Shown: positions 7,889-25,673 of the stretch, piece after piece | Layout: the number at the start of each line of letters is the position of its first letter | Position numbering within the stretch: position 1 is the first letter of the stretch | DNA from: an uncultured Planctomycetales bacterium | GTDB lineage: Bacteria > Omnitrophota > Gorgyraeia > Zapsychrales > Fredricksoniimonadaceae | Direction of reading: 5' to 3' | Assembly (NCBI GenBank): GCA_964572155.1 | Contig: CAZNDZ010000002.1 | Coordinates: forward strand, 83,089 to 147,088 | DNA length: 64,000 bases | Notes under the pieces: model-generated | The model's database searches: none | The model's input: the letters and a program-made list of their open reading frames with translations, nothing else | Told to the model about the DNA's origin: nothing | Program-made: the position numbers and the translations under genes

Positions 7889-9289
7889 TTAGGAGTTTGT
7901 GGCAAGAACTTCCGCTTTAAGAACATGCGGTGTGGCGTCTGTGATACGGACCTTTAAAAATGAGCCGACTTCATAATCACCCTCAGGAAAAGTGACCAAT
8001 TTTCCACCATCATTACGGCCAACTTTATCACGCAGACTGCGAGGATTTGTTGGGTTTTCAACCAAAATGGTATGCACTTCACCAATGTGTGCTTTATTTT
8101 TCTTTAAAGTAATTTCCTTTTGAATCTCATTTAAACGCATGATGCGTTCTGTTTTCTTCGCCTCTGTTACATCATCCGGAAATTTCTTCGAAGCAATAGT
8201 CCCTTTTCGTTCGGAATACTTAAACATAAACGCCACATCAAACTCCACCTCTTTGATAACCTTAATGGTGTCTTCAAACTCATCGTCAGTTTCCGTCGGA
8301 AAACCAACAATGATATCGGTGCTTAAGATAACGCCTGGGATACGATCGCGCATTTTTTGAGCTAGACTCAAAAATTCTTCTTTTGTATATGTTCGATTCA
8401 TCACATCTAATATGCGGTTGTTGCCTGCTTGCAATGGCATATGCATTTGTTTACAAATCTTGGGATTGTCACGCATGAGCGCAATAAATTTATCTGGAAA
8501 ATCTTTAGGGTGTGGCGACGTAAAACGAATGCGTTCGATCCCTTTAACACGACTTACCGCATCCATCAAATCCGCAAAATCACCTTCTTCATGACGATAG
8601 GAATTTACATTTTGGCCAAGCAAGGTCACTTGTTTAAACCCTTGAGCCGCGAGCCCTTCAACTTCTTCAATGACATTTGAGATGGACCGACTGCGTTCTC
8701 GCCCACGCGTATACGGCACCACGCAAAACGTACAAAAATTATTACACCCACGCATAACCGCAATCCATGCATTTATCCCATCTTTACGACTAGGCGTCAC
8801 ATCCGAATACGTCTCAAATTCTGACAAGGTCACATCATAAGGCTTCTCACCTTCACCCACAGCCTCCCGAATCAAATCCGGCAACCGCTTATAACTATCC
8901 GGCCCCGCAATAAAATCAATCTTCAAACTACGATCCTCAAAAATCTCCTGCCGCAAATTAGTAGCCATACATCCCAAAATACCAATAAGCACCGGCTTAT
9001 CCCCTCGATCATGCCGTAAATTATGCACCCGCCCATAAACCTTCTGATGCGCCTTCTCCCGAATAGCACACGTATTAAGCATCACAATATCCGCATCCTG
9101 TTCCTTAGACACGAATTCGTAGTTTTCTTTACGCAAAATAGAACGTACGAGCTCTGAATCATACTCGTTCATTTGGCATCCATAGGTCTCCAAAAGCACG
9201 CGCTTTCCAATTGAGGAAGATTGCGGTTTTTGTTCTGGATTTCCGACTGTGTTGCCGTTGTTTGTGGTCTTTTGTTGCTGTTCTTCCAT
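7889..9289 (-). CDS. miaB: tRNA-i6A37 methylthiotransferase MiaB (radical SAM)
   Basis: UPF0004 N-domain TYGCQMNEYDSE, radical-SAM CNNFCTFC and a TRAM C-terminus. The first 30 aa (Q/N/T-rich) overlap the recombinase ORF in another frame. An alternative GTG start at 9199 would give MLLETYGCQM. Confidence 0.85.
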   Translation of the reverse strand: MEEQQQKTTNNGNTVGNPEQKPQSSSIGKRVLLETYGCQMNEYDSELVRSILRKENYEFVSKEQDADIVMLNTCAIREKAHQKVYGRVHNLRHDRGDKPVLIGILGCMATNLRQEIFEDRSLKIDFIAGPDSYKRLPDLIREAVGEGEKPYDVTLSEFETYSDVTPSRKDGINAWIAVMRGCNNFCTFCVVPYTRGRERSRSISNVIEEVEGLAAQGFKQVTLLGQNVNSYRHEEGDFADLMDAVSRVKGIERIRFTSPHPKDFPDKFIALMRDNPKICKQMHMPLQAGNNRILDVMNRTYTKEEFLSLAQKMRDRIPGVILSTDIIVGFPTETDDEFEDTIKVIKEVEFDVAFMFKYSERKGTIASKKFPDDVTEAKKTERIMRLNEIQKEITLKKNKAHIGEVHTILVENPTNPRSLRDKVGRNDGGKLVTFPEGDYEVGSFLKVRITDATPHVLKAEVLATNS

Positions 9290-10920
9290 TTTAGCCCTTC
9301 ATCGTAGCTAGTCTGCCACGGTTCATTTAATTCAACATTAACAATACGCTGATCCTGAATGTAAACCGCCTTAAACACAATCCGCATAAAGGTTTTAATT
9401 AAAAAACTTGTTCCTCCGAAGCCATCATCCGCTATTTCATGGTTTGGCGAAGGAGAATCAGCTTGCTCATTATCCTGAAATTTTCGTAAATGTAAAAGAA
9501 AATCCTCGGTGGCTCGGTTTAAATTAATGGCGTTTCTTTTGTCTAAAATCCTAAGCTGAACACCTTTAATATCCTGCCTTAACTTCTTCTCCTCATTACG
9601 CAAAAGCTCGGCGCGGTCTTTGTAAATCTCCAGATTAATGCTGTCCTGCGTAAAAACTTCAAACAAACCTTTTTGCTTCTCAAGGTTTTTATTAAGAGCC
9701 TTTGTCAATACTTCCAGCTCATCTAAGAACACCTGCTCCGGCTGGGAGGCATTAAGCTTAACCATGTCGCCTAATTCTTCAAGGACATGCAAGTTTTGGC
9801 ATACCACATCAATAATATCCCAGACCTGTACGCTTATCACATCCGCTGACACGCTTGGATTATGGCACGTTAAATACGAAACCCCTTTGGATGAACAGCG
9901 ATACCACGGGCGCTTGACCTTGGTGCGGTGATTGGTAATCGACATGATGCCACGAAAATTACCACCACACTCCTTGCATTTTAGCACACCGGACAAGTGG
10001 TAATTATTGTTCTTAAATTTCACCACCGCATTCTTGCGATTGCGTTTAAGCAAGACCGCGGCTTCATCGAATTGTTTCTGGCTGATGATAGGCTCATGGA
10101 CATTGGGCACTTCAACAATTTTAGAAGTATCATTGGCGATATATTTATAGCCATTACCTTGACCATCTTTTGTTTTTGCTCTTGGATCATAACGATGGCG
10201 GTTCCAAACCAACATCCCTAAATACACCTTGCTCTTTAGAATGGTGCCAATAAATTTCGTGTAGAATCGCCCGCCCTGACGGGATGATGTTCCTAGACGA
10301 TAAAAATGACCGGCAATTTGCGAGGTGCTTTGGCCGTTGATATAACGCTCAAAAATTTCTCTAACAATCTTGGCTTCCTCCTCATAAACCTCCAGCTTCT
10401 TAATGTCTTTATTGTAGCGATAGCCATATGGTGCATAACGCGCCCCCTGCCAATGGCCTTTCTTAACACCCACCAGCATCCCGGGAAAGACACGCTCAAC
10501 CAAACGATTGCGTTCAAACTCCGCGCAAGAGCCCAGCATTTGAATGGCCATCTTGCCAGCACTGGATGTTGTATCAAAAGGTTCAGTCGCTGATTTATAA
10601 CCAACCCCTAAATTATCCAATTCCTCAAGCAAACCCAGAAGGTCTTTGAGCCGACGGCTTAAACGATCTTGTTTATACACCATCACCAAATCAAACTGTT
10701 TATTGCGAGCATCGAACAACAACCTCTGCAAAGCAGGCCTGTCCATATTCCCTCCAGAAAAGCCGTCATCCATGTAAATATCCTTACCCGGCAAGGTGCA
10801 AACAATTGTCCAGCCAAGATTCTGGGCATATTGCACCAAAAACGTGCGTTGCACCTCGAGTGAAAAACCTTCGCGGGCTTGGTCTTCTGTACTGACTCTG
10901 GTATATAAAGCGACTCTCAT
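9169..10920 (-). mobile_element. Large serine recombinase (resolvase/invertase N-domain + recombinase domain + Zn-ribbon/coiled-coil); island integrase
   Basis: MRVALYTRVSTEDQ catalytic Ser motif (start chosen at the internal Met). Recombinase domain and CxxC...C zinc ribbon (CKECGGNF...C) are present. The C-terminal ~90-aa tail may be non-coding read-through into miaB. Confidence 0.85.
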
Positions 10921-10955
10921 GTTCATTTGGCGGGAGTATACCTTGCATTCCCGCA

Positions 10956-11201
10956 TTATTCAAAGCCTTCTTGAGCTTTCTTGGCTAAAAACATTCTAGT
11001 TAATATTTCAATACCATCATCAAACGACTTTCGCGCCTGAGCGATTTCCCCCTGAGACAAACCTTTAGCCTTGAGCTTTATTTCTAAAGCATCCCAGCCA
11101 CGGGGTTTTGATATTGCGTCATTATTTATAATTGAGTCACTATTCATAACAATAAGAAGGTGTGCGGAGGAAGACACAAGGAGGGATCTTCTGTTATGCA
11201 C
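10956..11201 (-). CDS. Small hypothetical protein, possible HTH/excisionase-like regulator
   Basis: Sits immediately upstream of and abutting the recombinase gene. The segment GLSQGEIAQARKSF resembles an HTH turn. Function not supported further. Confidence 0.35.
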   Translation of the reverse strand: MHNRRSLLVSSSAHLLIVMNSDSIINNDAISKPRGWDALEIKLKAKGLSQGEIAQARKSFDDGIEILTRMFLAKKAQEGFE

Positions 11202-13825: not shown

Positions 13826-16800
13826 CTATAGAATACTCACAAATTCAGCTACAACACGAAAATCATCACCAGAAACGTTTTCGATCACAATATCTTTAAA
13901 ATCTTTATTATCCGGCGATAGAATGATCCGCTTGTGCCTCCACTGATCATCACCTAAATCTTCCTTCTCGCTGTGATAACGTTTAATGGTATAACTCTTC
14001 TGAGTTTCGGGGTCTTTAACTAATCGAGATTCCACAAGAAAAATACCAATACGTGAACCTCCGCGATCAAAACGGAACAAGCACCAGCTGCCGTCTTTAA
14101 TGGTAGGTTCCATTGATTTTCCAAATACCTGCGCGATGAACATATGCTCACCAATCTTACGCCCATGCATCGGCTTCCACCCGATAATTTCTTGCGTTAA
14201 CTGTTCTCCAAAGTCTGTCGCTACTGCCTGCAAGTCATAAACGGGAAGATACCCCTGTTCAATTGTCGCATCGGGAATCACATCCTTAAAAAACAACGGC
14301 TTATCATCCTCAACCTTTTGAAGGCGTCCATAAACACGCTTTAATAAATAATCTTTTACAACCGCACTAAAGGCTTTATCACCTGTGATCTTATTGAAAA
14401 TATCTTGATTCTGATCCATCCGCTCAACTAACTTATCCATAAACACATCATCAAATCCGTATTTGAAATTATCAATAGAATTGCTCTGGGCTTGCATGCC
14501 AAGGCGCTCATCTAAGACCATTTCCTCCTCAATTTGATCAAAGAAAAGCTTATCTGCTTCCGTAAAATCTGTTCCGAATCGATCATTAAGAAGATTAATT
14601 ATTTCAGATAATTTTGCGTATTCGTCCTTATCCTTCTTCGTGCCCGCCTCAGACAATGGCTTGATTGCCGCTCCTGAATCCTTTTCTAAAGCAATCTTGC
14701 CCTCTGCAACTTTCTGCAAACGGTAATACTGAATAGCAACCTCATCACCCAAATTGTATCTTGGCCCACGATTTGGCCCCGGTAATTTCTTTAAAAGCAA
14801 ACGGCCATAGGCATAAAACTTTTCTAAATCAACATCTTGAAACGGCATAATTTGCGCTAAGAATGCATAAAGCCTGACAAAAACTCCAAGCGTATTAATA
14901 AAATCGTCTTTGTGTTCATCCTTATCAATTGTTTCAAAACGTGTCACTGCCACATCAATTAACGCATTTAACTGGGCATGTTCCTGTTTATTGTGCTGTT
15001 CTTTATTCTTAAAGAATACGGTACAAAATGCATCCACATCTGATGGATAAATGATTTTAAATGAATCAATCTTAGTCTTTAAATCGTAGAGCTTATTGGG
15101 ATCTGTTGTCTCTGTTAATTGCGTTTGTTCATAATATGGTTGGAATGCCGCTAAAATATCCTCCCGGCTATTTACAAAATCTAACACGAAGGTATCTTCC
15201 TTACCCGGACAAGTACGATTCAAACGGCTTAATGTTTGTACAGCCTTAACACCATCAATACGTTTATCTACATACATCGTATGCAACAACGGCTCGTCAT
15301 ATCCTGTCTGATACTTCTCAGCTACTAAAAGAATTTGATACTCTGAAGAAGAAAACTTCTCCGGCAATTCTTTCTCACCAAAACCATTCATCTTGGGCTC
15401 TGTGTATTCAGGCGGTACACCATCCAATAAAACAGTTCCAGAGAAAGCCACCAAAGCCTTGATATCCCGATAACCTTTTTCTTTTAAATAACGATCAAAC
15501 TCTTGCTTATAGCGAACCACGTGCTCACGGGAAGCTGTGACAACCATGGCCTTGGCTTTACCGCCAATCAACTTCATGGTTACCTGCCTAAAGTGCTCGA
15601 TGATAACCTCTGTTTTCTGGGCTAATACATACGGATGCATTGTTGCAAATCTAGCAATAGCGGCCGCGGCTTTCTGCTTATTTAGCTGAGGATCATCTTC
15701 GATCTTTTTGTTTAACTGGTAAAAAGACTGGTAGGTGGTGTAGTTGTCTAATACGTCCAAGATAAAACCCTCTTCAATGGCTTGTCGCATAGAATACAAA
15801 TGAAATGGCACCGGCTTCCCATCCGTACCCTTTTGACCAAAAGTCTCAAGTGTCTTAGCCTTAGGTGTTGCCGTAAAAGCAAAGAAGCTTAAATTCGGCT
15901 GAGGCCCTCTGGCACGCATGACCTCACGCAAACCATCTTCAATATCATCTTCATCGCTGATCAATAAAACCCTTTTCAAATCAGCGGCAGATTCTCCCCC
16001 TTGCGAACTATGTGCTTCATCGACAATAACCGCATAATTACGCTTAGCTAACTTCCCAACTTTCTCAATAACAAAGGGAAACTTCTGTAATGTGGTGATA
16101 ATAATATTTGTGCCGTTGGTCAACGCATTGGCCAACTGCTCAGAATTCTGGTCAATCTTTTCAACCACCCCGCTTCTATGCTCAAACTGATAAATAGTCT
16201 CTTGCAATTGCTGATCAAGCACTAGCCTGTCCGTCACCACAATCACCGTATCGAATATGCGCTTATCCTCTTGATCATGGATCCCCGCCAAACGGTAAGC
16301 AAGCCATGCAATTGAATTACTCTTGCCGCTTCCAGCGCTGTGTTGAATTAAATAATTTCTTCCGGCACCATTAGCCTTGGCATCAACAGCTAATTTCCTC
16401 ACCACATCAAGCTGATGATAACGAGGAAAGATCATGGTCTCTTTACGGACAGTACGATTATCCATGCGGATTTCTTTTGTTTCTAAATGCATGAACCGAC
16501 CCAAGATATCCATCAGACTGTCTTTAATTAAAACCTCTTCCCAAAGATACGCTGTCTTATGCCCACTTGACGGAGGATTTCCTTTGCCCTTGTTATGCCC
16601 TTTATTAAACGGTAAATAATACGTTCGGTTTCCTTGAATACGGGTAGTCATATAAACCTCATCCGTATCAACAGCAAAATGAACCAAAGCACGCTTTTTA
16701 AATTGGAATAACAAATCCCTCTCATCACGGTCATATTTATACTGTCGTTTGGCATTTTCCACATTCTGCCCCGTGAATTGATTCTTAAGCTCTAATGTCA

Positions 16801-17248
16801 CCACCGGCAGACCATTAACCAAAAGGACAATATCAACTGAACGCTCATCTTTTTCACAAAAGTGAACCTGACGGGTAACATTAAGAATATTTTGGTCGTA
16901 TAATTTCTGAGTTGTAGGATTAAGCCCGCTGACAGGCTTAAAGTAGGCAAGGGAGAACTTCTTGCCGTAGTCAGTAATTCCATAACGAAGACAGTCCAGC
17001 ATACCGCGCGTTTCCAACTCCTGATTCAGCCGATAAAGAAACTTCTTCTCTACCTCCGCACCATGAATACCAGCCAAAGCATCCCAAGCATCTTTTTGTG
17101 TCGTTTTAATAAATTTGAATAGCTCCTCTTTATCAATGCACATAAGACGATCGAAATTAGCTGAATCTCCTTTTATGTAACCACCACGGTCGATCAGACT
17201 TTGCTCGATTGCTTCTTCAAATGCTTTTTCATTTGTTATTGATGACAT
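13826..17248 (-). CDS. hsdR: Type I restriction enzyme R subunit HsdR with C-terminal LexA/UmuD-like S24 peptidase domain
   Basis: Motifs: N-terminal nuclease region NGLPVVTLELKN, SF2 helicase motif I GSGKS, DEAH box VIVDEAHSSQG and motif VI QTLSRLNR. The C-terminal ~150 aa carry the S24 signature YLPVYDLQAVATDFGE...GKSMEPTIKDGSWCLF...YTIKRY (Ser/Lys dyad positions conserved). Confidence 0.85.
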   Translation of the reverse strand: MSSITNEKAFEEAIEQSLIDRGGYIKGDSANFDRLMCIDKEELFKFIKTTQKDAWDALAGIHGAEVEKKFLYRLNQELETRGMLDCLRYGITDYGKKFSLAYFKPVSGLNPTTQKLYDQNILNVTRQVHFCEKDERSVDIVLLVNGLPVVTLELKNQFTGQNVENAKRQYKYDRDERDLLFQFKKRALVHFAVDTDEVYMTTRIQGNRTYYLPFNKGHNKGKGNPPSSGHKTAYLWEEVLIKDSLMDILGRFMHLETKEIRMDNRTVRKETMIFPRYHQLDVVRKLAVDAKANGAGRNYLIQHSAGSGKSNSIAWLAYRLAGIHDQEDKRIFDTVIVVTDRLVLDQQLQETIYQFEHRSGVVEKIDQNSEQLANALTNGTNIIITTLQKFPFVIEKVGKLAKRNYAVIVDEAHSSQGGESAADLKRVLLISDEDDIEDGLREVMRARGPQPNLSFFAFTATPKAKTLETFGQKGTDGKPVPFHLYSMRQAIEEGFILDVLDNYTTYQSFYQLNKKIEDDPQLNKQKAAAAIARFATMHPYVLAQKTEVIIEHFRQVTMKLIGGKAKAMVVTASREHVVRYKQEFDRYLKEKGYRDIKALVAFSGTVLLDGVPPEYTEPKMNGFGEKELPEKFSSSEYQILLVAEKYQTGYDEPLLHTMYVDKRIDGVKAVQTLSRLNRTCPGKEDTFVLDFVNSREDILAAFQPYYEQTQLTETTDPNKLYDLKTKIDSFKIIYPSDVDAFCTVFFKNKEQHNKQEHAQLNALIDVAVTRFETIDKDEHKDDFINTLGVFVRLYAFLAQIMPFQDVDLEKFYAYGRLLLKKLPGPNRGPRYNLGDEVAIQYYRLQKVAEGKIALEKDSGAAIKPLSEAGTKKDKDEYAKLSEIINLLNDRFGTDFTEADKLFFDQIEEEMVLDERLGMQAQSNSIDNFKYGFDDVFMDKLVERMDQNQDIFNKITGDKAFSAVVKDYLLKRVYGRLQKVEDDKPLFFKDVIPDATIEQGYLPVYDLQAVATDFGEQLTQEIIGWKPMHGRKIGEHMFIAQVFGKSMEPTIKDGSWCLFRFDRGGSRIGIFLVESRLVKDPETQKSYTIKRYHSEKEDLGDDQWRHKRIILSPDNKDFKDIVIENVSGDDFRVVAEFVSIL

Positions 17249-17257
17249 ATATACCTA

Positions 17258-17989
17258 TCACTGAGATGCGTTCATAATTTCGTTTGAACTTAAATCAAAT
17301 CCTTCTTCTTGCAATCTTTTACAAAGCTTAGGAATTATCTCTCGAATATGAGTGTTATATCCATATCTAATGATGCCTTCCAAATCAGATGGCAACTCTA
17401 AGTGCCCCTTGACTATAATTGCCATGCGATTTCTTGTCAAAGAAGACAACAACATTCCTGTCTCAAGAATTACATTCTGTCGGGTTCGTGGTTCAGCTTT
17501 ATCAGCGCCGTCCTTAAGCGCATATCCTACGTCATCAGGCGTCATTAAAACAATTCCAAAATCTGATGAATAATCCTTCCCAATTCTACCTTCTAAAGCT
17601 TCAATAATAGTTTTACCTCCGCCACTACTATTCATCAAAATAAACGGTTCCAAATTTAACCGATGCAACGCAAGTTCCAACTGATCTCTTGCTTCAACAT
17701 CATGACCATGCACAATAAAAATCTGTTTCTTAGAAGAGCCGCCTTGTGACGTTCCATTCCCAGCAAACAAATCATGCATCCTCTTTTTTGCATCATCATT
17801 TCCTTGAAACTGTATCGTCTTGTTTGATGACCACCAATGAAGGATCCCTCCATCTTTGGCGCGGAATGAATACTTATCTCCTGATTGAGTCCAGGATCCT
17901 TCAATAGTCATAAAGATTGACTTTAATTGATCAATACTACCGTTATATTTATCAGCCATTAACAATCTCCTTTTCAAAACGAACATCAA
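17258..17989 (-). CDS. TIR-like domain protein (Cap12/PycTIR-type, COG4271-like) with ~80-aa N-terminal domain of unknown function
   Basis: KQIFIVHGHDVEARDQLELALHRLNLEPFIL...GKTIIEALEG...DFGIVLMTPDDVG...RTRQNVILETGML...RMAIIVKG...ELPSDLEGIIRYGY matches the conserved blocks of the CBASS/Pycsar-effector TIR-like family. It lies between hsdS and hsdR and overlaps the hsdS stop. Confidence 0.65.
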   Translation of the reverse strand: MMFVLKRRLLMADKYNGSIDQLKSIFMTIEGSWTQSGDKYSFRAKDGGILHWWSSNKTIQFQGNDDAKKRMHDLFAGNGTSQGGSSKKQIFIVHGHDVEARDQLELALHRLNLEPFILMNSSGGGKTIIEALEGRIGKDYSSDFGIVLMTPDDVGYALKDGADKAEPRTRQNVILETGMLLSSLTRNRMAIIVKGHLELPSDLEGIIRYGYNTHIREIIPKLCKRLQEEGFDLSSNEIMNASQ

Positions 17990-19301
17990 TCTTTCCCGTC
18001 ACTGCTTCTGAAATTAACGCAGTGCGGTATTCGTTCAACAGCTCGATAGACCTCTGTTCTAGAACAATCTGCGCATCGATCTGAACAGTTTTTTTATCTA
18101 AAAAAGATGCTATAGCTTCTTGTTCTTTTTTGGGTGGAATTAAACATATAGAATTGCTTAAAGCATAATTGCTCAATCCATATCTTGTAACGCCAGACGC
18201 TTCAATTCTAAACTGATAATTAATACAATCTGCAGACAAGACCCAGAACAGATATTTTCCTTGGATCAATTGTTCTTTGGGGCGCACTTGAGCCAGATGA
18301 TAGCCACATATTAAATTTGGCTCTTCAAAGGACACATACGCAGGAATAGCAATATCGCTCCATTCTTCAGAATCTTTAGTTAGCAAAACATCCCCCACCT
18401 TTAAATGAAACTTTACAATTTCATCTGCTGAAGCTGTAGCATCCATAAAATCTAAATCTGGCGTAATTAAATCGTTATAATAAACATCAACGTAATTACA
18501 AAGTCTTACAGCTATCTCGCCTTCTTCGGATTTCTTGTTAACATTGCTAAACTGAACCTGTGCATTAAATTTCAACTTCTTAATCTCCCAATGCTTCGGA
18601 ACCTTACCTAACCATTCAATACCAGAATCTTTCATCTCAGCTTTGGGATCAATCCCTTTGGTCACTGTTTGATTAATTACTGCCGCACGCTCCTCTTTAA
18701 GAAGCTTAATCATCTGCTCCTTTTTGGTAATCAGGTCGTCAATCTGTGCAGTATTATGATCAAGAAATGCGGAAATACATCTTTGTTCACTTATATCATC
18801 CGGATACCAAATCGCTATATCTGCCAAATCTGAAGAATTAATTGCCGGATAGCTCACACCAACCGATAAGGCGCATATTCGATCAATGATCTTCTCGCTA
18901 CGTAAAATATAATAAATAAATTTTGGTTCAAGCTTTGATCCAGGAGTCACCACAGCAAAACCGGTTGAGACGATAAAATCATTCACGTCCTCTTCGAAAT
19001 GAGCAATGGCTTTTAAATAAGTTCTGACTGTGGAAACAATTGAATCACCTTTTCTTACAATTCTTCTAGCTCGAGAAGGCGCGTTTAGAAAATTAACTTT
19101 CTCCGTAATGCTATAACCCTTCTCAAGATCAACATTTCCTATGTCAATATAGTTAAACTCGTAGCTTCCATCAGTTTCCTCGCCCAAAGCAAGTTGATTG
19201 ACGCGTGAAACATATTTAATCTTTTTTATCTTCCAAATTTCAGGAATATTCCCAATCCATTTAATCCCTGAATCTTTATATGCTGGATAATACTTAAACA
19301 T
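17952..19301 (-). CDS. hsdS: Type I R-M specificity subunit HsdS (two target-recognition domains)
   Basis: 449 aa with duplicated TRD architecture and conserved HsdS repeat regions (e.g. the conserved spacer helix LLKEERAAVINQTVTKGIDP). Confidence 0.8.
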   Translation of the reverse strand: MFKYYPAYKDSGIKWIGNIPEIWKIKKIKYVSRVNQLALGEETDGSYEFNYIDIGNVDLEKGYSITEKVNFLNAPSRARRIVRKGDSIVSTVRTYLKAIAHFEEDVNDFIVSTGFAVVTPGSKLEPKFIYYILRSEKIIDRICALSVGVSYPAINSSDLADIAIWYPDDISEQRCISAFLDHNTAQIDDLITKKEQMIKLLKEERAAVINQTVTKGIDPKAEMKDSGIEWLGKVPKHWEIKKLKFNAQVQFSNVNKKSEEGEIAVRLCNYVDVYYNDLITPDLDFMDATASADEIVKFHLKVGDVLLTKDSEEWSDIAIPAYVSFEEPNLICGYHLAQVRPKEQLIQGKYLFWVLSADCINYQFRIEASGVTRYGLSNYALSNSICLIPPKKEQEAIASFLDKKTVQIDAQIVLEQRSIELLNEYRTALISEAVTGKIDVRFEKEIVNG

Positions 19302-20235
19302 AAGCTAGTCCCAGATCAGATGTATCCTTCTTAAATGGCTTTTGCTGATGAATCAAAACATGCCCATTTTCTAATGGAATTTTAATCTTCCTTAGCTCAA
19401 CGCGCCAATCCTGATATTCCTTAACAATATTCTCGACCCCAGCATGTTCATTAAAAATAACCTTATCTTCAGCAGACTGAACCATCAATCGGTTAAGCAT
19501 TTCAACGCCTTGCGGTTTTATTGCTCCCACACTGTCACTTTGGCGCGGCTCTGTGTCATGTAAAGGATGAATAATTATTGCTAAACGTGGAGTTATGGGG
19601 CAATACAAATCACATTGATTAGCGTTCCAATATTGCAAACAAACTGGATTATCGCTAGTCAAAAATTGAACAGGTGTTTCATTCTTAAATACAATCCATG
19701 GCGATGTAGCTAGGAGATTTTGAACGCCAATCAAAGCATTAATCCCCAATGCCTGTGGAAATGCTTGCTTGATGAGAGCCTTGGTTCCTCCATGCTTACG
19801 AATTGTTTCTATTGCTTCACGATGCTTTGAATTAGGATCTGATAATTCTTTCTCTTCCAATTTATCATACAAATGCTGAACAATATGCGAAAGGCCACCA
19901 ACACCCAACCTCACAGCCGTTGGAGTGCAGGCTCTTAGATAAGCAAGGTACCCAGCTATTAAATGCTTTGTTGTTGCGTCATATATATTCGTAGAAATGC
20001 TATTAACACAATCAGTCCATTTAGGTTCGACGATCTTAAGAAAATCCTCAACAGCTCTTGGATTATCTGGAAAATATTCGTTTGAACTCCAGTCCACTTC
20101 ATAACAGATTGACTTTATTGGAATAGCATTTTGTCGACTTAAGTTGCTTTTTCGAAAAACATTAATAAAATCAGGGTTGCTAGTCAGTCCAAATCCCCTC
20201 AAATATGTTTGAGCGACATAATGATCTTTAGCCAT
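19294..20235 (-). CDS. DUF4238 family protein
   Basis: N-terminal HYVAQTYLRGF matches the DUF4238 signature (HYVPQFYLxxF). The gene sits between hsdM and hsdS. Confidence 0.6.
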   Translation of the reverse strand: MAKDHYVAQTYLRGFGLTSNPDFINVFRKSNLSRQNAIPIKSICYEVDWSSNEYFPDNPRAVEDFLKIVEPKWTDCVNSISTNIYDATTKHLIAGYLAYLRACTPTAVRLGVGGLSHIVQHLYDKLEEKELSDPNSKHREAIETIRKHGGTKALIKQAFPQALGINALIGVQNLLATSPWIVFKNETPVQFLTSDNPVCLQYWNANQCDLYCPITPRLAIIIHPLHDTEPRQSDSVGAIKPQGVEMLNRLMVQSAEDKVIFNEHAGVENIVKEYQDWRVELRKIKIPLENGHVLIHQQKPFKKDTSDLGLAYV

Positions 20236-20833
20236 TTAGAACCTCTGAATTCATCTTCCCGATCCAAGCATGTAACGCGTGTTTTATTTCGTCGGTAGTC
20301 ATACCTTTCATTCGAAATATTTCTTCAATTATATCCTCTGCAACAGTCAAGGTTTCAACCGCCACAGTTTTATCTAATTTCTCATAAGCCGAAATATCTG
20401 GCATGCCTTGAATTTGAATACCAGGTAAATTAATGGTCTGATGGGTGCTTTTAAAATGCATAAGCTTGTTCCTTAAATTCTTTAATTTCATAAACCGCTG
20501 ACCTACCCCCTCACTAAGATCAATCTCCTTATCAAAAAACCTCTTCGGCCATGTTTTAATTTTGCGGTCTAGACTCATATTTTCATCAAGATCTTTAATC
20601 GTTTGATCGCTACAACTTGAGCAGTGAGCCTCTCCAGCCAAAACCCTGAAATACATGTTAAAAAATGTTTCAACAATAGCTACGCTCATAAACACGCAGG
20701 GCAATACTTTTCGTTGAAGATTTGTATCGTCTCGCTCGACCTGAACTTCTTGCACCATTTCGCGCAAGCATCCAAAGTATTCCCAAATCATTTTATTCGG
20801 CGAACCAAAATGTGAATTAGCTGCATTATTCAC
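20228..20833 (-). CDS. Hypothetical protein, candidate HEPN-domain (RNxxxH motif)
   Basis: 201 aa, mostly helical by composition. KNLRNKLMHF contains an R-N-x3-H HEPN-type motif. The assignment is inferential. Confidence 0.4.
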   Translation of the reverse strand: MNNAANSHFGSPNKMIWEYFGCLREMVQEVQVERDDTNLQRKVLPCVFMSVAIVETFFNMYFRVLAGEAHCSSCSDQTIKDLDENMSLDRKIKTWPKRFFDKEIDLSEGVGQRFMKLKNLRNKLMHFKSTHQTINLPGIQIQGMPDISAYEKLDKTVAVETLTVAEDIIEEIFRMKGMTTDEIKHALHAWIGKMNSEVLNG

Positions 20834-22835
20834 CTAAAACTTCTCCCAATAGCCCTTCAGTTTCTTTTTCTAAAGCCAAAATATCTTTGCGTATCTCATC
20901 AAGACTACGTAATGGCTTATATTTATAGAATTCCTTCGTGAAATTGATTTCATACCCGATCTTGTCCTTGCTCCTATCCATCCACGCATCAGGCACATGA
21001 GGCATGACCTCACGCTTAAAATACTCGTCAATATTATCGGACAGCGGAACATTCTCCGCGTCGCGCAATTCCGCATCAGCTTCTGGCTTGCCTTCTTTAT
21101 CCAGACAAATCTCCGCTGTCTCATCCCTCTGGGAAAGAACCTCAAGGATGGATTTCATAACAGGCGCTTTGATCTTCAATCCAGCCTTATCAATGGCCGC
21201 ATCTATGATTGCTATAAATTTTTCTCGGTTATTATAGGTCTTGGCGCTATCCAATCCATTGAGCATTGCTTTAATCGCCTTCTGTAAAGCTTCGCCCTCC
21301 TCAATTTCCTTAATACCTTCCTTGCCCTTCTTCTTGGATTTGGCAAGATTAACAAATCCTGACTGCTGATCCAATAAGGCTATTCTTTCTGGGGATACCT
21401 GAAAACTCAATCGAAGCGGCCGCTCGACTGTCACACGGGTATAACCAAAATATTCATTGGGGAATATCTTGCAATGCTCTCCAGCTTTAAATTGTCCATA
21501 TATCTTTGTGATTGTCCCGATATGATCCTCGGCTATTTCATTACGTTTATTACCGAGGCTTCTGGCCATCTTCTTAAAGAAACCAACCCCATTGATAAGC
21601 TGAATCTTTCCTTTTCGATCTTTAGCTTTACGATTAGTAACAATCCAAATATAAGTTGAAATGCCTGTGTTATAAAAAAGCTGATCCGGCAAAGCAACAA
21701 TTGCCTCTAACATATCATTCTCAATAATCCACCTACGTATCTCACTCTCTCCGCTACCAGCTCCACCAGAAAACAAAGGCGAACCATTAAAAACAATCCC
21801 TAAACGAGCACCACCATTTTCCGGACGCATTTTGGAAATCATGTGTTGAAGAAACAAGAATGATCCATCGCTTATGCGTGGCAATCCAGCACCAAAACGC
21901 CCGGCGTTTCCTAACGTTTCATGCTCCTTCAGAATTTCACCCTCTATCTTCTTCCACTCAACACCAAAGGGAGGGTTGGAAAGCATGTAATCAAACTTCT
22001 CGTCCTTGAGCCCGTCTTGAGTAAAGGAATTACCAAACTTAATTTGATCTGGATTCTGTCCCTTAATAAGCATGTCGGAATTGCATATCGCATATGACTC
22101 TGGGTTAAGCTCTTGTCCAAAAACACGAAGGCTTGCATCAGGATTTAATTCACGCAAATATTCCTCTGCAATGGACAACATCCCACCCGTTCCGCAAGCC
22201 GGATCATAAAGCGTCTTCACAATTCCCTTTTTGGTTAATACTTCCTTGTCATTTAAGAAAAGAATATTAACCATCAGACGAATAACTTCACGCGGGGTAA
22301 AATGCTCCCCTGCCGTTTCATTGGAAAGGTCAGCAAACTTACGGATCAACTCCTCGAAAATGTAACCCATTTCAATATTGGGGACGACTTCAGGATGGAG
22401 ATCAACTTCAGCAAACCGTTTTATGATTAAGAAAAGGAGGTCGGATTTATCAAGCCGTTCAATATGATCTTCAAAATTGAAATGATCAAGAATATCCCTG
22501 GCATTTTTAGAAAAACCAGCAATGTAATTGCGGAGATTAGCGGCAATATCGCTTGGGTCAGCAACAAGCTTCTGGAAGTCAAACTTGCTTTTGTTGTAAA
22601 ATGTTAGTTTTGCCTTCTTTTTTAGAACTGTTTCAATTGCTTCAGGCGATAACCCTTTGGTCTGCGGTAAATATTCCAAGACAGTTAATTTTGTTGGCTC
22701 TAATACGCAATCCAAACGGCGCAACACCGTGAGTGGTAAAATTACCTTCCCATATTCAGATTGTTTATAGTCTCCACGAAGCAAATCCGCGATGCCCCAT
22801 ATAAAATTTGCACGGTCTTTAAAATTATTAGCCAC
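20826..22835 (-). CDS. hsdM: Type I R-M N6-adenine DNA methyltransferase HsdM (long form, 669 aa)
   Basis: HsdM N-terminal domain, AdoMet motif I (DPACGTGG) and catalytic motif NPPFG (LSNPPFGVEW). C-terminal extension present. Confidence 0.9.
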   Translation of the reverse strand: MANNFKDRANFIWGIADLLRGDYKQSEYGKVILPLTVLRRLDCVLEPTKLTVLEYLPQTKGLSPEAIETVLKKKAKLTFYNKSKFDFQKLVADPSDIAANLRNYIAGFSKNARDILDHFNFEDHIERLDKSDLLFLIIKRFAEVDLHPEVVPNIEMGYIFEELIRKFADLSNETAGEHFTPREVIRLMVNILFLNDKEVLTKKGIVKTLYDPACGTGGMLSIAEEYLRELNPDASLRVFGQELNPESYAICNSDMLIKGQNPDQIKFGNSFTQDGLKDEKFDYMLSNPPFGVEWKKIEGEILKEHETLGNAGRFGAGLPRISDGSFLFLQHMISKMRPENGGARLGIVFNGSPLFSGGAGSGESEIRRWIIENDMLEAIVALPDQLFYNTGISTYIWIVTNRKAKDRKGKIQLINGVGFFKKMARSLGNKRNEIAEDHIGTITKIYGQFKAGEHCKIFPNEYFGYTRVTVERPLRLSFQVSPERIALLDQQSGFVNLAKSKKKGKEGIKEIEEGEALQKAIKAMLNGLDSAKTYNNREKFIAIIDAAIDKAGLKIKAPVMKSILEVLSQRDETAEICLDKEGKPEADAELRDAENVPLSDNIDEYFKREVMPHVPDAWMDRSKDKIGYEINFTKEFYKYKPLRSLDEIRKDILALEKETEGLLGEVLGE

Positions 22836-22852
22836 TTATCACTCCCATTCTT

Positions 22853-23536
22853 TTAATCTTCACAAGGCGGATACTGCATCGGCGCTTCCCCAATGCTCTC
22901 CAATACTTTCGGCTTTAAATCCCCTTTGGTGTTGTTGCAAATCTCTAAAAGCTCCACATTAAACTGCCAGCCATCGCCGTAATCAAAAAGCATGATCAAC
23001 TTCTCACCTACGGTATCAAAGGCCTGTGAAATCTTGGTCTTTTTTACACCCTTGGCGCCTGGCCTGCCCTCTTCACCGATATCAACAAAAAGCTCAAAGG
23101 CCTTTCGGCAATTTCGATGATCCTTTAATTGGTCATAGAACCCAAAGCAATGATCAAACTCAAAATCAAATGCCTGCGTTATGACCTTGGCAAAATTATA
23201 AAGTGTTTTGGTTGGGACGATCTGGATCTTGCGAATAATCCTTTTCTCCTTCGTGCAATGTTCATCGCCGTAAAGCCAGACATTGAAAATATAAAGACCG
23301 GACTCGGTCGCCTTAGCTTTCTTCTTTGGAGCCGGAGCCAGATCATCGATAACCCGGGCCACCTTGTGACCGCAGGTACCGCAGAACCCTTGAAGAACCA
23401 CGACCCCGTTCAGTTCCGCGTGATAATCAACAATGGTCACCGACTTTCGGCACTCCCCGCACCAAACGTTACTCAAAAGCATACGCCGGATGTCCAAAGG
23501 AACAGTCTGCCATAGTTTTAATGCTTCATCTGCCAT
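22853..23536 (-). CDS. pRiA4b ORF-3-like protein with N-terminal CxxC...CxxC zinc ribbon
   Basis: LFDYGDGWQFNVELLEI matches the hallmark DxGDxWEH-type motif of the plasmid pRiA4b ORF-3 family. Zinc ribbon is CGEC...CGTC. The gene lies 17 bp upstream of hsdM on the same strand. Confidence 0.5.
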   Translation of the reverse strand: MADEALKLWQTVPLDIRRMLLSNVWCGECRKSVTIVDYHAELNGVVVLQGFCGTCGHKVARVIDDLAPAPKKKAKATESGLYIFNVWLYGDEHCTKEKRIIRKIQIVPTKTLYNFAKVITQAFDFEFDHCFGFYDQLKDHRNCRKAFELFVDIGEEGRPGAKGVKKTKISQAFDTVGEKLIMLFDYGDGWQFNVELLEICNNTKGDLKPKVLESIGEAPMQYPPCED

Positions 23537-24456: not shown

Positions 24457-25332
24457 TCAAGCCAATTCAAGTCGCTGGAACCGTTCGATTAAAAGTTTAT
24501 CAAAATCTTGAGCAAGACCTTTAGGAAGCAAAGACTCCGCAAGTTTTGAACGAAGCATTTCTTTCTGCCCAATGAACTTCGCGAATCGAATCTTTTCTGG
24601 AATGCCTAAATACTCAGCGAGAAGGTCCATGTCCTTCCTTTTGAGCCGACTCTTTTTCCCCTTAATAGTCAATGCGGATTCGTCTGCCTCTTCTGGAATC
24701 ACAATCCTTGAGCAAACCAAATCGTAAGCAGGCGCAAGGCGTACCAATCCTTCTTCATTATAAATAACTGAATAATTCTTCATATGCGCATCACCATTAC
24801 CAATCAAGAAATTAAAAATAACGCGTTCAAAGAAAAGCTGGACGTCAAGCCCGGGAACCTCGGATGCTTCCTTTAACTTTCGGCCAATCTCCTCGACAGA
24901 GCCGTTATATTTATCTTTTTTCTCAAGGATTTGGGCAAAGTCTTCTTGATGAATCTTGCGACGCCCCTCGCGGTCAAAACGCTTGACCACATAAGCTAAA
25001 CTTTTATCTTTCAAATGCACCAGACAATGCGGTGGAACATCGATACCTAAATCTTGGGCAAACGTCATGCAAAGATCTTCATTTTCAGGCAAGTTCGCAA
25101 ATGCCTGCACCTGTGGTTTTAAAATATATTGTCCACCTTCACCGGTGACTTCTAAACGAGGCTCATTATCTTTATCAGCAAGTCGCACAGAAAGTTTTGG
25201 CTGAACGCCTGAAATAGACATTTTACCAACCATCTCTTGTGCTTTAAGAGAAACGCCAGCCAAGGTCAGATCAATAAAAGGCTCTTTATCAATGCCAAAA
25301 ACTTTACGCCATGACGCTTGTTGGTTTTTCAT
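24457..25332 (-). CDS. hipT: HipT-like Ser/Thr kinase toxin (HipA kinase core without N-subdomain)
   Basis: Gly-rich loop MSISGVQPKLSV carries the S-I-S autophosphorylation motif. Catalytic region GNGDAHMKNYSVIY is present. 291 aa. Confidence 0.8.
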   Translation of the reverse strand: MKNQQASWRKVFGIDKEPFIDLTLAGVSLKAQEMVGKMSISGVQPKLSVRLADKDNEPRLEVTGEGGQYILKPQVQAFANLPENEDLCMTFAQDLGIDVPPHCLVHLKDKSLAYVVKRFDREGRRKIHQEDFAQILEKKDKYNGSVEEIGRKLKEASEVPGLDVQLFFERVIFNFLIGNGDAHMKNYSVIYNEEGLVRLAPAYDLVCSRIVIPEEADESALTIKGKKSRLKRKDMDLLAEYLGIPEKIRFAKFIGQKEMLRSKLAESLLPKGLAQDFDKLLIERFQRLELA

Positions 25333-25673
25333 GTTGCACCACTTTCCCTCACCGTAACCGCACCAATGGTGTTTTCACCGGTCACGAGCAAAATTCCAAA
25401 ATCATCCCTACTGTCAATCTTTCTTGTTGCACAAACAATATCCCGATACCAGCCTTCAGAATTTAGGCCCGCAAAGAATGGAAAAAGTACCGCTGATTCA
25501 AAAGGCTCTGATTGTAATGGCAAGGAAAGTGATATAGATTTGCCCGTCTTTAAGAAATCAGGATCATAAGTAAATTTAAAACCCGCATCCATTTCTTCCA
25601 GAACACCAGCCAAACGCTCATGATAGAAAACATCTGCTTTGCGTTTATGATCTGCCATTACGTACCACCTCAA
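25329..25673 (-). CDS. hipS: HipS-like protein (HipA N-terminal subdomain encoded as separate gene)
   Basis: 114 aa matching the HipA N-terminal domain. Overlaps the hipT start by 4 nt and the hipB stop by 29 nt. Confidence 0.7.
   Translation of the reverse strand: MRWYVMADHKRKADVFYHERLAGVLEEMDAGFKFTYDPDFLKTGKSISLSLPLQSEPFESAVLFPFFAGLNSEGWYRDIVCATRKIDSRDDFGILLVTGENTIGAVTVRESGAT

Follow-up and report, generated by a model that had tools for sequence, protein, structure and literature searches.

A probable HEPN-superfamily protein and an independent DUF4238 protein share a cargo slot of a Type I restriction-modification operon

HEPN ribonucleases (RNases) were reportedly predicted in 2013 to lie inside restriction-modification (R-M) operons. 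Links to R-M systems have been described for at least 16 HEPN clades, PrrC being the paradigm (PMC3710099), and defense genes embedded in Type I R-M, BREX, DISARM, and Hma systems have been surveyed (Payne et al. 2024, bioRxiv 10.1101/2024.01.29.577857). One of them, HEC-08, is an embedded DUF3644-HEPN protein whose motif His is required for defense (Payne et al. 2024), and a further system that resides in a Type I operon, TgvAB, has been validated (PMC11411939). In addition, a DUF4238 protein from a P2 prophage hotspot confers, as a single gene, strong T7 resistance in E. coli (PMC9122126, Rousset et al. 2022), and DUF4238 also occurs in TIR-containing E. coli defense systems (PMC11350192). 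Here, we analyzed a 64,000-nucleotide (nt) stretch of contig CAZNDZ010000002.1 (the window), from an uncultured bacterium, in which a 201-amino-acid (aa) open reading frame (ORF) with a HEPN-like motif and a 313-aa ORF of the DUF4238 family lie between hsdM and hsdS, the methyltransferase and specificity subunit genes of a Type I R-M system. The locus fits the known pattern of defense genes embedded in R-M operons, and the principle is not new.

We consider this locus likely to be a layered anti-phage operon, into which a HEPN RNase-type effector and an independent DUF4238 module have been embedded. The candidate effector, the 201-aa protein (window positions 20228..20833, minus strand), is very probably a standalone HEPN-superfamily member with an intact R-N-x3-H site. 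The protein itself gave nothing meaningful in Pfam, NCBIfam, PHROGs, or PADLOC, and a word-indexed search returned 17 relatives with 41 to 100% identity, none of which carries a Pfam domain. An exhaustive profile search (E-value ≤ 0.001) extended the family to 232 cluster representatives (50%-identity clusters), mostly 190 to 210 aa long. Residue conservation was read from an alignment, A2, of 105 full-length members with a median pairwise identity of 29%. R121 is the sole invariant residue in A2 (105/105), followed by H126 (104/105), N59 (103/105), N122 (101/105), and E55 (Glu in 100 members and Asp in 5), and then by K91 and W190. The segment KNLRNKLMHF (residues 118 to 127), which the original prediction had read as the HEPN catalytic motif, thus stood up to this comparison: R121 and H126, whose variation among homologues would have spoken against that reading, are near-invariant. 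The residue after the motif Arg is one of the polar residues (N, D, or H) seen in HEPN proteins, namely Asn in 101 of the 105 members and His in 3. The codons of this putative catalytic motif, R121-N-K-L-M-H126, conserved family-wide, occupy positions 20456..20473 (minus strand).

A match to an Rx4-6H string is on its own within chance, because the 201-aa protein has a second such string (Rx6H, residues 63 to 70) whose His is not conserved, being K, E, Q, or P in relatives. Judged from the alignment, this second string is an internal control, and conservation at residues 121 to 126, unlike a string match, is not cheap. Profile comparisons point in the same direction. When the A2 members were scanned singly against Pfam, the most frequently matched families were all HEPN: HEPN_RiboL-PSP (PF18735) was matched sub-threshold by 25 of the 105 members (best E-value 7.7e-5) and HEPN_Apea, also sub-threshold, by 14, followed by HEPN_Cthe2314 (4 members) and by DUF3644, HEPN_Swt1, and HEPN_LA2681 (2 members each). 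The hidden Markov model (HMM) consensus of the family reached PF18735 with 28.7 bits (cut-off 28.4; E-value 1.5e-6) over profile positions 12 to 185 of 191; its remaining Pfam matches were DUF3644, HEPN_Cthe2314, and HEPN, and no others.

HEPN domains are defined by a pair of alpha-hairpins whose helices 2 and 3 are separated by an insert, by a motif at the end of helix 3, by a polar residue after the Arg, and by an acidic residue in helix 2 (PMC3710099). The AlphaFold2 model of the 201-aa protein (predicted local distance difference test [pLDDT] 88.4, predicted template modeling score 0.82) agrees with this definition, the form of the acidic motif (E-x3-N) excepted. More specifically, the predicted order is a helix at residues 12 to 31, a helix at 36 to 68, a helical hairpin at 72 to 100, a helix at 109 to 125, a beta-hairpin, a helix at 155 to 176, and a C-terminal helix. 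The motif falls at the end of helix 109-125 (helix 3), H126 is the first loop residue, and E55 lies in predicted helix 2. The expectation of an all-helical protein was therefore only partly borne out: the model is mostly helical, but a beta-hairpin is predicted just after the motif. A Foldseek search against the PDB placed HEPN proteins at 16 of the top 50 fold matches (rank 1 probability 0.90), with the HepT-type HEPN toxins 7bxo, 6m6u, 5yep, and 8xdj as the top neighbors. Among viral folds in BFVD, the search returned one good match to an unnamed phage protein (probability 0.99, template modeling [TM] score 0.51), and two HEPN-named proteins ranked weakly. PDB sequence-profile searches gave only candidates that were weak and off-motif or plainly non-homologous, namely aIF1 (alignment A1, E-value 0.4) and the TenA-like protein 1rtw (A2, E-value 0.0022 over residues 33 to 107), and both were discarded as non-informative.

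Comparison with described HEPN families places the 201-aa family closest to RiboL-PSP-HEPN (PF18735; Anantharaman et al. 2013), yet outside it, as a sister family or divergent outlier and not as a member. The family consensus matches PF18735 better than any other profile, and the R-N-x3-H motif is intact; however, the window protein does not match the model, there is no L-PSP fusion here, and the 201-aa family occurs in R-M operons, in contrast to the ParB operon listed for the PF18735 family (PMC3710099). The HepT-type toxins of HepT/MntA HEPN-MNT toxin-antitoxin systems are likewise small standalone HEPN proteins and the top structural neighbors, but the 201-aa protein exceeds them by about 70 residues and carries an additional C-terminal helix, a helical-hairpin insert, and, behind the motif, a beta-hairpin, and no MNT nucleotidyltransferase (NTP_transf_2-type) gene adjoins the HEPN gene in the 11 distinct loci described below. 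With HEC-08 and the DUF3644 HEPN proteins (PADLOC PDC-S19 type), the 201-aa protein shares the property of being embedded in a multi-gene defense operon; indeed, DUF3644/PDC-S19 genes fill another slot of this same operon lineage. The 201-aa protein nevertheless differs in having no zinc-ribbon domains, and its family has no PADLOC model. A relationship of the 201-aa family to DUF3644 was tried and rejected, hhalign against three DUF3644 proteins giving a probability of 0.3% with only the RN..H stretch aligned, on a thin template profile (effective number of sequences 1.2).

The second gene of interest, the 313-aa ORF (19294..20235, minus strand), encodes a bona fide DUF4238 protein, as had been recognized from its sequence. 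It matches Pfam DUF4238 (PF14022) with 96.2 bits against a cut-off of 27 (E-value 2.9e-27) over profile positions 1 to 279 of 281, and PF14022 is present in all 67 of its homologues. The invariant residues of the family include D4, H5, K29, E70, D195, P197, and N248, a set that, going by the alignment, looks like an enzyme site. Its AlphaFold2 model (pLDDT 91.2) found no fold match in the PDB (TM about 0.1), and no PDB sequence match was found either. The PADLOC DUF4238-Pers model touches only a 36-residue stretch (residues 171 to 206; E-value 0.021, 12.3 bits), and because it barely touches the protein, we place the latter in a distant DUF4238 subfamily. The statement that DUF4238 has no assigned function cannot be kept, since an anti-T7 phenotype has been published (PMC9122126), biochemistry aside. 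With that published system, Rst_DUF4238 (Rousset et al. 2022), the window protein shares PF14022, a single gene of about 300 aa, and the habit of moving alone between contexts, but it belongs to the distant subfamily and its gene is embedded in an hsd operon as opposed to a P2 prophage hotspot.

Both genes belong to a tightly packed row on the minus strand that covers 13.8 to 23.5 kilobases of the window. The row includes hsdM (20826..22835; 669 aa; Pfam N6_Mtase, E-value 8e-61, and HsdM_N, E-value 7e-28), the 201-aa and 313-aa ORFs, hsdS (17952..19301; 449 aa; Pfam Methylase_S in two stretches, E-value 6e-16), a TIR-domain gene (17258..17959; Pfam PF10137, E-value 2.8e-30; PADLOC PDC-S35, E-value 2.2e-86), and hsdR, the restriction subunit gene (13826..17248; 1140 aa; Pfam HSDR_N, SWI2_SNF2, ResIII, and T1R_D3-like), all on the minus strand. 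The cluster thus unites hsdM, hsdS, and hsdR, and each subunit is matched by Pfam, NCBIfam, and PADLOC. The originally reported gene order, coordinates, and three 8-nt overlaps proved exact. The hsdM stop overlaps the GTG start of the 201-aa gene by 8 nt (GTGAATAA), and the 201-aa gene overlaps the DUF4238 gene in the same manner (ATGGCTAA), with a GGAG-type ribosome-binding site upstream in both cases; at the third overlap, between the DUF4238 gene and hsdS (ATGTTTAA), the ribosome-binding site is weak and reads GGGA only. A fourth 8-nt overlap, between hsdS and the TIR gene (ATGGCTGA), lies behind an AAGGAG site if the TIR gene starts at the ATG at 17959, which, from the sequence, is probably the case. 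For the 201-aa protein, the GTG start is favored over Met15 because the SPN motif (residues 11 to 13) is conserved in homologues. The 201-aa and DUF4238 genes are probably translationally coupled within the Type I hsd operon. Promoter-like and terminator-like sites within the operon are as frequent as expected from shuffled sequence, and neither Rfam nor tRNA scans of the window returned anything.

We also observed that the junction between the 201-aa and DUF4238 genes (gaggttctaAATGGCTAA, 20226-20243) and that between hsdS and the TIR gene (gagattgttAATGGCTGA, 17950-17967), both on the minus strand, are strongly alike. This likeness may reflect only a common design of ribosome-binding site plus overlap. 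It might also be that alike junctions with a uniform 8-nt overlap are joints for the exchange of cargo cassettes.

With the aim of placing the two genes in context, we compared 11 distinct HEPN-gene loci with usable flanks, and all fetched loci were re-scanned with HMMs of both families. A metagenome scan had added five loci (L007 to L011), of which L010 and L011 have usable flanks, L007 duplicates L001, and L008 and L009 are too short. Elsewhere, a profile scan of genome contigs with the 201-aa family alignment found no member, the single protein giving a marginal partial match only, and tblastn of the 201-aa protein and the family consensus against plasmid and phage collections found no match. 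HsdM of the window is 81 to 95% identical to HsdM of seven related loci; in the close HEPN-gene loci, identity to the window is 81 to 89% for HsdM and 72 to 83% for HsdR, which in these loci always bears the S24-like tail described below. The HEPN gene stands directly behind hsdM, with the same 8-nt overlap, in the window, L001, L002, L004, L005, and L010, and in L003 (with an identical copy in L011) an FRG gene lies between the two. In L012, a 39%-identical family member follows, again with an 8-nt overlap, a 1003-aa fused HSDR_N/N6_Mtase/MmeI/Eco57I/TaqI_C (Type IIG-like) enzyme (L012 733-4327). The HEPN gene is therefore linked to the methylase gene rather than to Type I systems per se. A more distant member, in L013, adjoins a DUF1156-methylase/SNF2 system.

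Side observations were also made on three distant members found in an integrase/primase island (L016 7331-7930, L017 2956-3555, and L018 376-975), which always have the same unannotated 199-aa gene upstream. That gene, which has no Pfam or PADLOC match, may act as a partner or antitoxin in this subfamily.

The DUF4238 gene behaves differently from the HEPN gene. It accompanies the latter in only 2 of the 11 distinct HEPN loci, the window and L001, and conversely the HEPN gene is present in 2 of the 5 distinct DUF4238 loci. Homologues 73% (L020/L021) and 67% (L022) identical to the DUF4238 protein stand alone, outside R-M operons, the L022 copy adjoining a GmrSD_N gene. In L023, a 92%-identical DUF4238 gene follows a 95%-identical hsdM with no HEPN gene; the slot of the latter holds an unrelated 165-aa predicted membrane protein (L023 9492-9989) with no Pfam or PADLOC match. 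Between hsdS and hsdR, the contents vary as well: TIR in the window and L003; DUF3644 in L001 and L004; DUF3644, DUF3800, and a 181-aa gene in L002; and a 200-aa gene, DUF3800, and a 181-aa gene in L010. Candidate defense genes of PADLOC among the slot genes are PDC-S35, PDC-S19, PDC-M04A/B, and PDC-S15, the last being the FRG gene. A conserved R-M backbone thus offers two slots for cargo (hsdM-hsdS and hsdS-hsdR); among the cargo genes, the HEPN gene recurs most constantly and DUF4238 turns up occasionally, and the two are not a pair but independent and swappable. The view of both genes as integral to the operon holds for their tight packing inside it, but not for their necessity, as each occurs without the other in the same hsd backbone.

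In the explanation that we favor, lineages would differ in the defense genes inserted into the two slots of a Type I R-M backbone, and in the window the first slot holds the 201-aa HEPN-superfamily protein and the DUF4238 protein and the second the TIR protein. Going by its intact motif, the 201-aa protein most likely acts as a small endoribonuclease that forms dimers and needs no metal, as do HEPN proteins with such a motif (PMC3710099), with putative catalysis by R121, N122, and H126, aided by E55 and N59 on helix 2. It could serve as a second line of defense that cuts host or phage RNA, stops translation, and aborts infections that escape restriction; its RNase activity, its toxicity, its trigger, and any control by the R-M complex are matters that we infer. 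Since translation of its gene is probably coupled to that of the methylase gene, the protein is probably made in step with the methylase, and the methylase complex may restrain it. DUF4238 would be a separate single-gene defense module that happens to share the slot.

Several observations weigh against this explanation and against the HEPN assignment on which it draws. The 201-aa window protein itself matches no HEPN model in Pfam, PF18735 included, at E-value ≤ 0.1, and the PF18735 match belongs to the consensus sequence only, 0.3 bits over the cut-off. The helix-2 motif of the family is E55-x3-N59 and not the usual E-x3-[KR], the Foldseek E-values of 0.2 to 2 are non-significant (TM-scores 0.36 to 0.54), and no antitoxin or sensor domain is evident in the protein. 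In addition, distant members occur elsewhere, in the integrase-bearing island (L016 to L018) or, in L019, as a solitary gene amid housekeeping genes, so that regulation by an R-M complex cannot hold for the whole family.

These points bear on the alternatives in different ways. The sub-significant single-sequence and structural evidence could mean that the Rx4H of the 201-aa protein is no nuclease site, and that this helical protein lacks catalytic activity and instead has an accessory or RNA-binding role, such as the regulation of hsd expression or assembly; some HEPN domains, such as MtlR, are indeed binders without catalysis (PMC3710099). We find this improbable. The motif is typically lost in non-catalytic HEPN families (PMC3710099), whereas R, N, and H are here among the best-conserved positions, and a core role in R-M is countered by L023, in which the backbone does without the HEPN gene. 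A single system made up of the HEPN and DUF4238 genes, either as toxin and partner or as sensor and effector, would suit their adjacency and 8-nt overlap in the window and L001. The co-occurrence counts given above, however, speak against such a system, as do the occurrence of each gene without the other in the same hsd backbone (L002 to L005 and L010 versus L023), the solitary DUF4238 genes of L020 and L022, and the fact that the published DUF4238 system acts as a single gene (PMC9122126). The two-gene reading is already largely refuted by these gene contexts and has very little probability left; the pairing that the original prediction proposed to follow across hsd loci is seen in the window and L001 only.

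A more serious contender is a PrrC-like guard, in which the HEPN protein would be bound and silenced by HsdM/HsdS and freed as an RNase once a phage anti-restriction protein disables the R-M complex. Its place directly behind the methylase gene with an 8-nt overlap in seven loci, which span Type I systems and the fused Type IIG-like enzyme, favors a link of the HEPN protein to the methylase, and in L003 (and the identical L011) only the FRG gene intervenes; one distant member lies beside the DUF1156 methylase/helicase system. There is also the precedent of EcoprrI, which masks PrrC (PMC3710099; Payne et al. 2024, bioRxiv 10.1101/2024.01.29.577857). The analogy to PrrC drawn at the outset applies to position, as both are HEPN-type genes within a Type I hsd operon, and a suicidal second-line attack on RNA is plausible for both. 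It does not extend to domain content: PrrC has an N-terminal ABC-ATPase regulatory domain, but the 201-aa protein gave no ATPase match in Pfam, NCBIfam, or PADLOC and has no other sensor domain, and the two differ in family and in gene position, the 201-aa gene coming right after hsdM. This missing sensor, the solitary homologues with no nearby methylase (L016 to L019), and the loss of the gene in L023, which keeps a 95%-identical hsdM, favor autonomy of the HEPN protein, and we regard the guard as possible but rather unlikely. An embedded HEPN effector alongside an independent DUF4238 module remains the explanation that we prefer.

The other genes of the operon add to its apparent defensive content. 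The TIR protein is of the CAP12/Pycsar-effector type (PF10137) and is the third embedded effector of the operon. HsdR ends in an S24-peptidase-like C-terminal domain (residues ~1031-1135; nt 13844-14158, minus strand), whose match to Pfam Peptidase_S24 (LexA/UmuD-like; E-value 7e-5, 22.9 bits) is just below the cut-off of 23.3. This tail, with its GKSMEP and T[IV]K motifs, is common to HsdR of L001, L002, L003, L004, and L010; the motifs look like a Ser/Lys dyad in sequence, and the tail could let the restriction subunit respond to RecA or to DNA damage. Our literature search found no paper describing an HsdR-S24 fusion. On a bolder view, which we hold to be doubtful and less probable than the guard in its simpler form, the 201-aa family would be an equivalent of PrrC pared down to the minimum, with no ATPase, and would serve as a general guard of DNA methyltransferases: co-translated with the methylase and docked on it in Type I and fused Type IIG enzymes alike, it would be set free as an RNase once the methylase core is attacked by a DNA-mimic or another anti-restriction protein of a phage, and in this lineage the S24-like tail of HsdR would add a second switch that senses damage or RecA. 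If so, one operon would integrate several infection signals.

Further genes belong to the row or flank it. A PRiA4_ORF3-like gene (22853-23536, minus strand), whose product carries a zinc-ribbon-like segment at its N-terminus, is the first of the row and precedes hsdM in the window by 17 nt, and in L002 a PRiA4_ORF3 gene (15686-16456) comes just after hsdR; because it is present beside the operon in both, this family also travels with the operon lineage. One flank of the window operon carries a large serine recombinase (9169-10956, minus strand), and the other (24457-25673, minus strand) a HipA-like kinase split over two ORFs (Couple_hipA and HipA_C) and a metallophosphoesterase. This flanking content suggests a mobile defense and toxin island.

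The novelty of the locus is modest and lies in an uncatalogued HEPN-type family, its fixed place behind methylase genes, and a clear two-slot architecture. The 201-aa family comprises 232 clusters at 50% identity with no Pfam, NCBIfam, or PADLOC model, and its position, almost always directly behind a DNA methylase gene, makes it a clean candidate for asking whether control by an R-M complex is possible for a bare HEPN domain that lacks the ATPase of PrrC. DUF4238 is an independent module, to be considered on its own. In addition, a single Type I R-M lineage here provides a natural example of two slots that take up at least eight gene families, five of them known or candidate defense genes.

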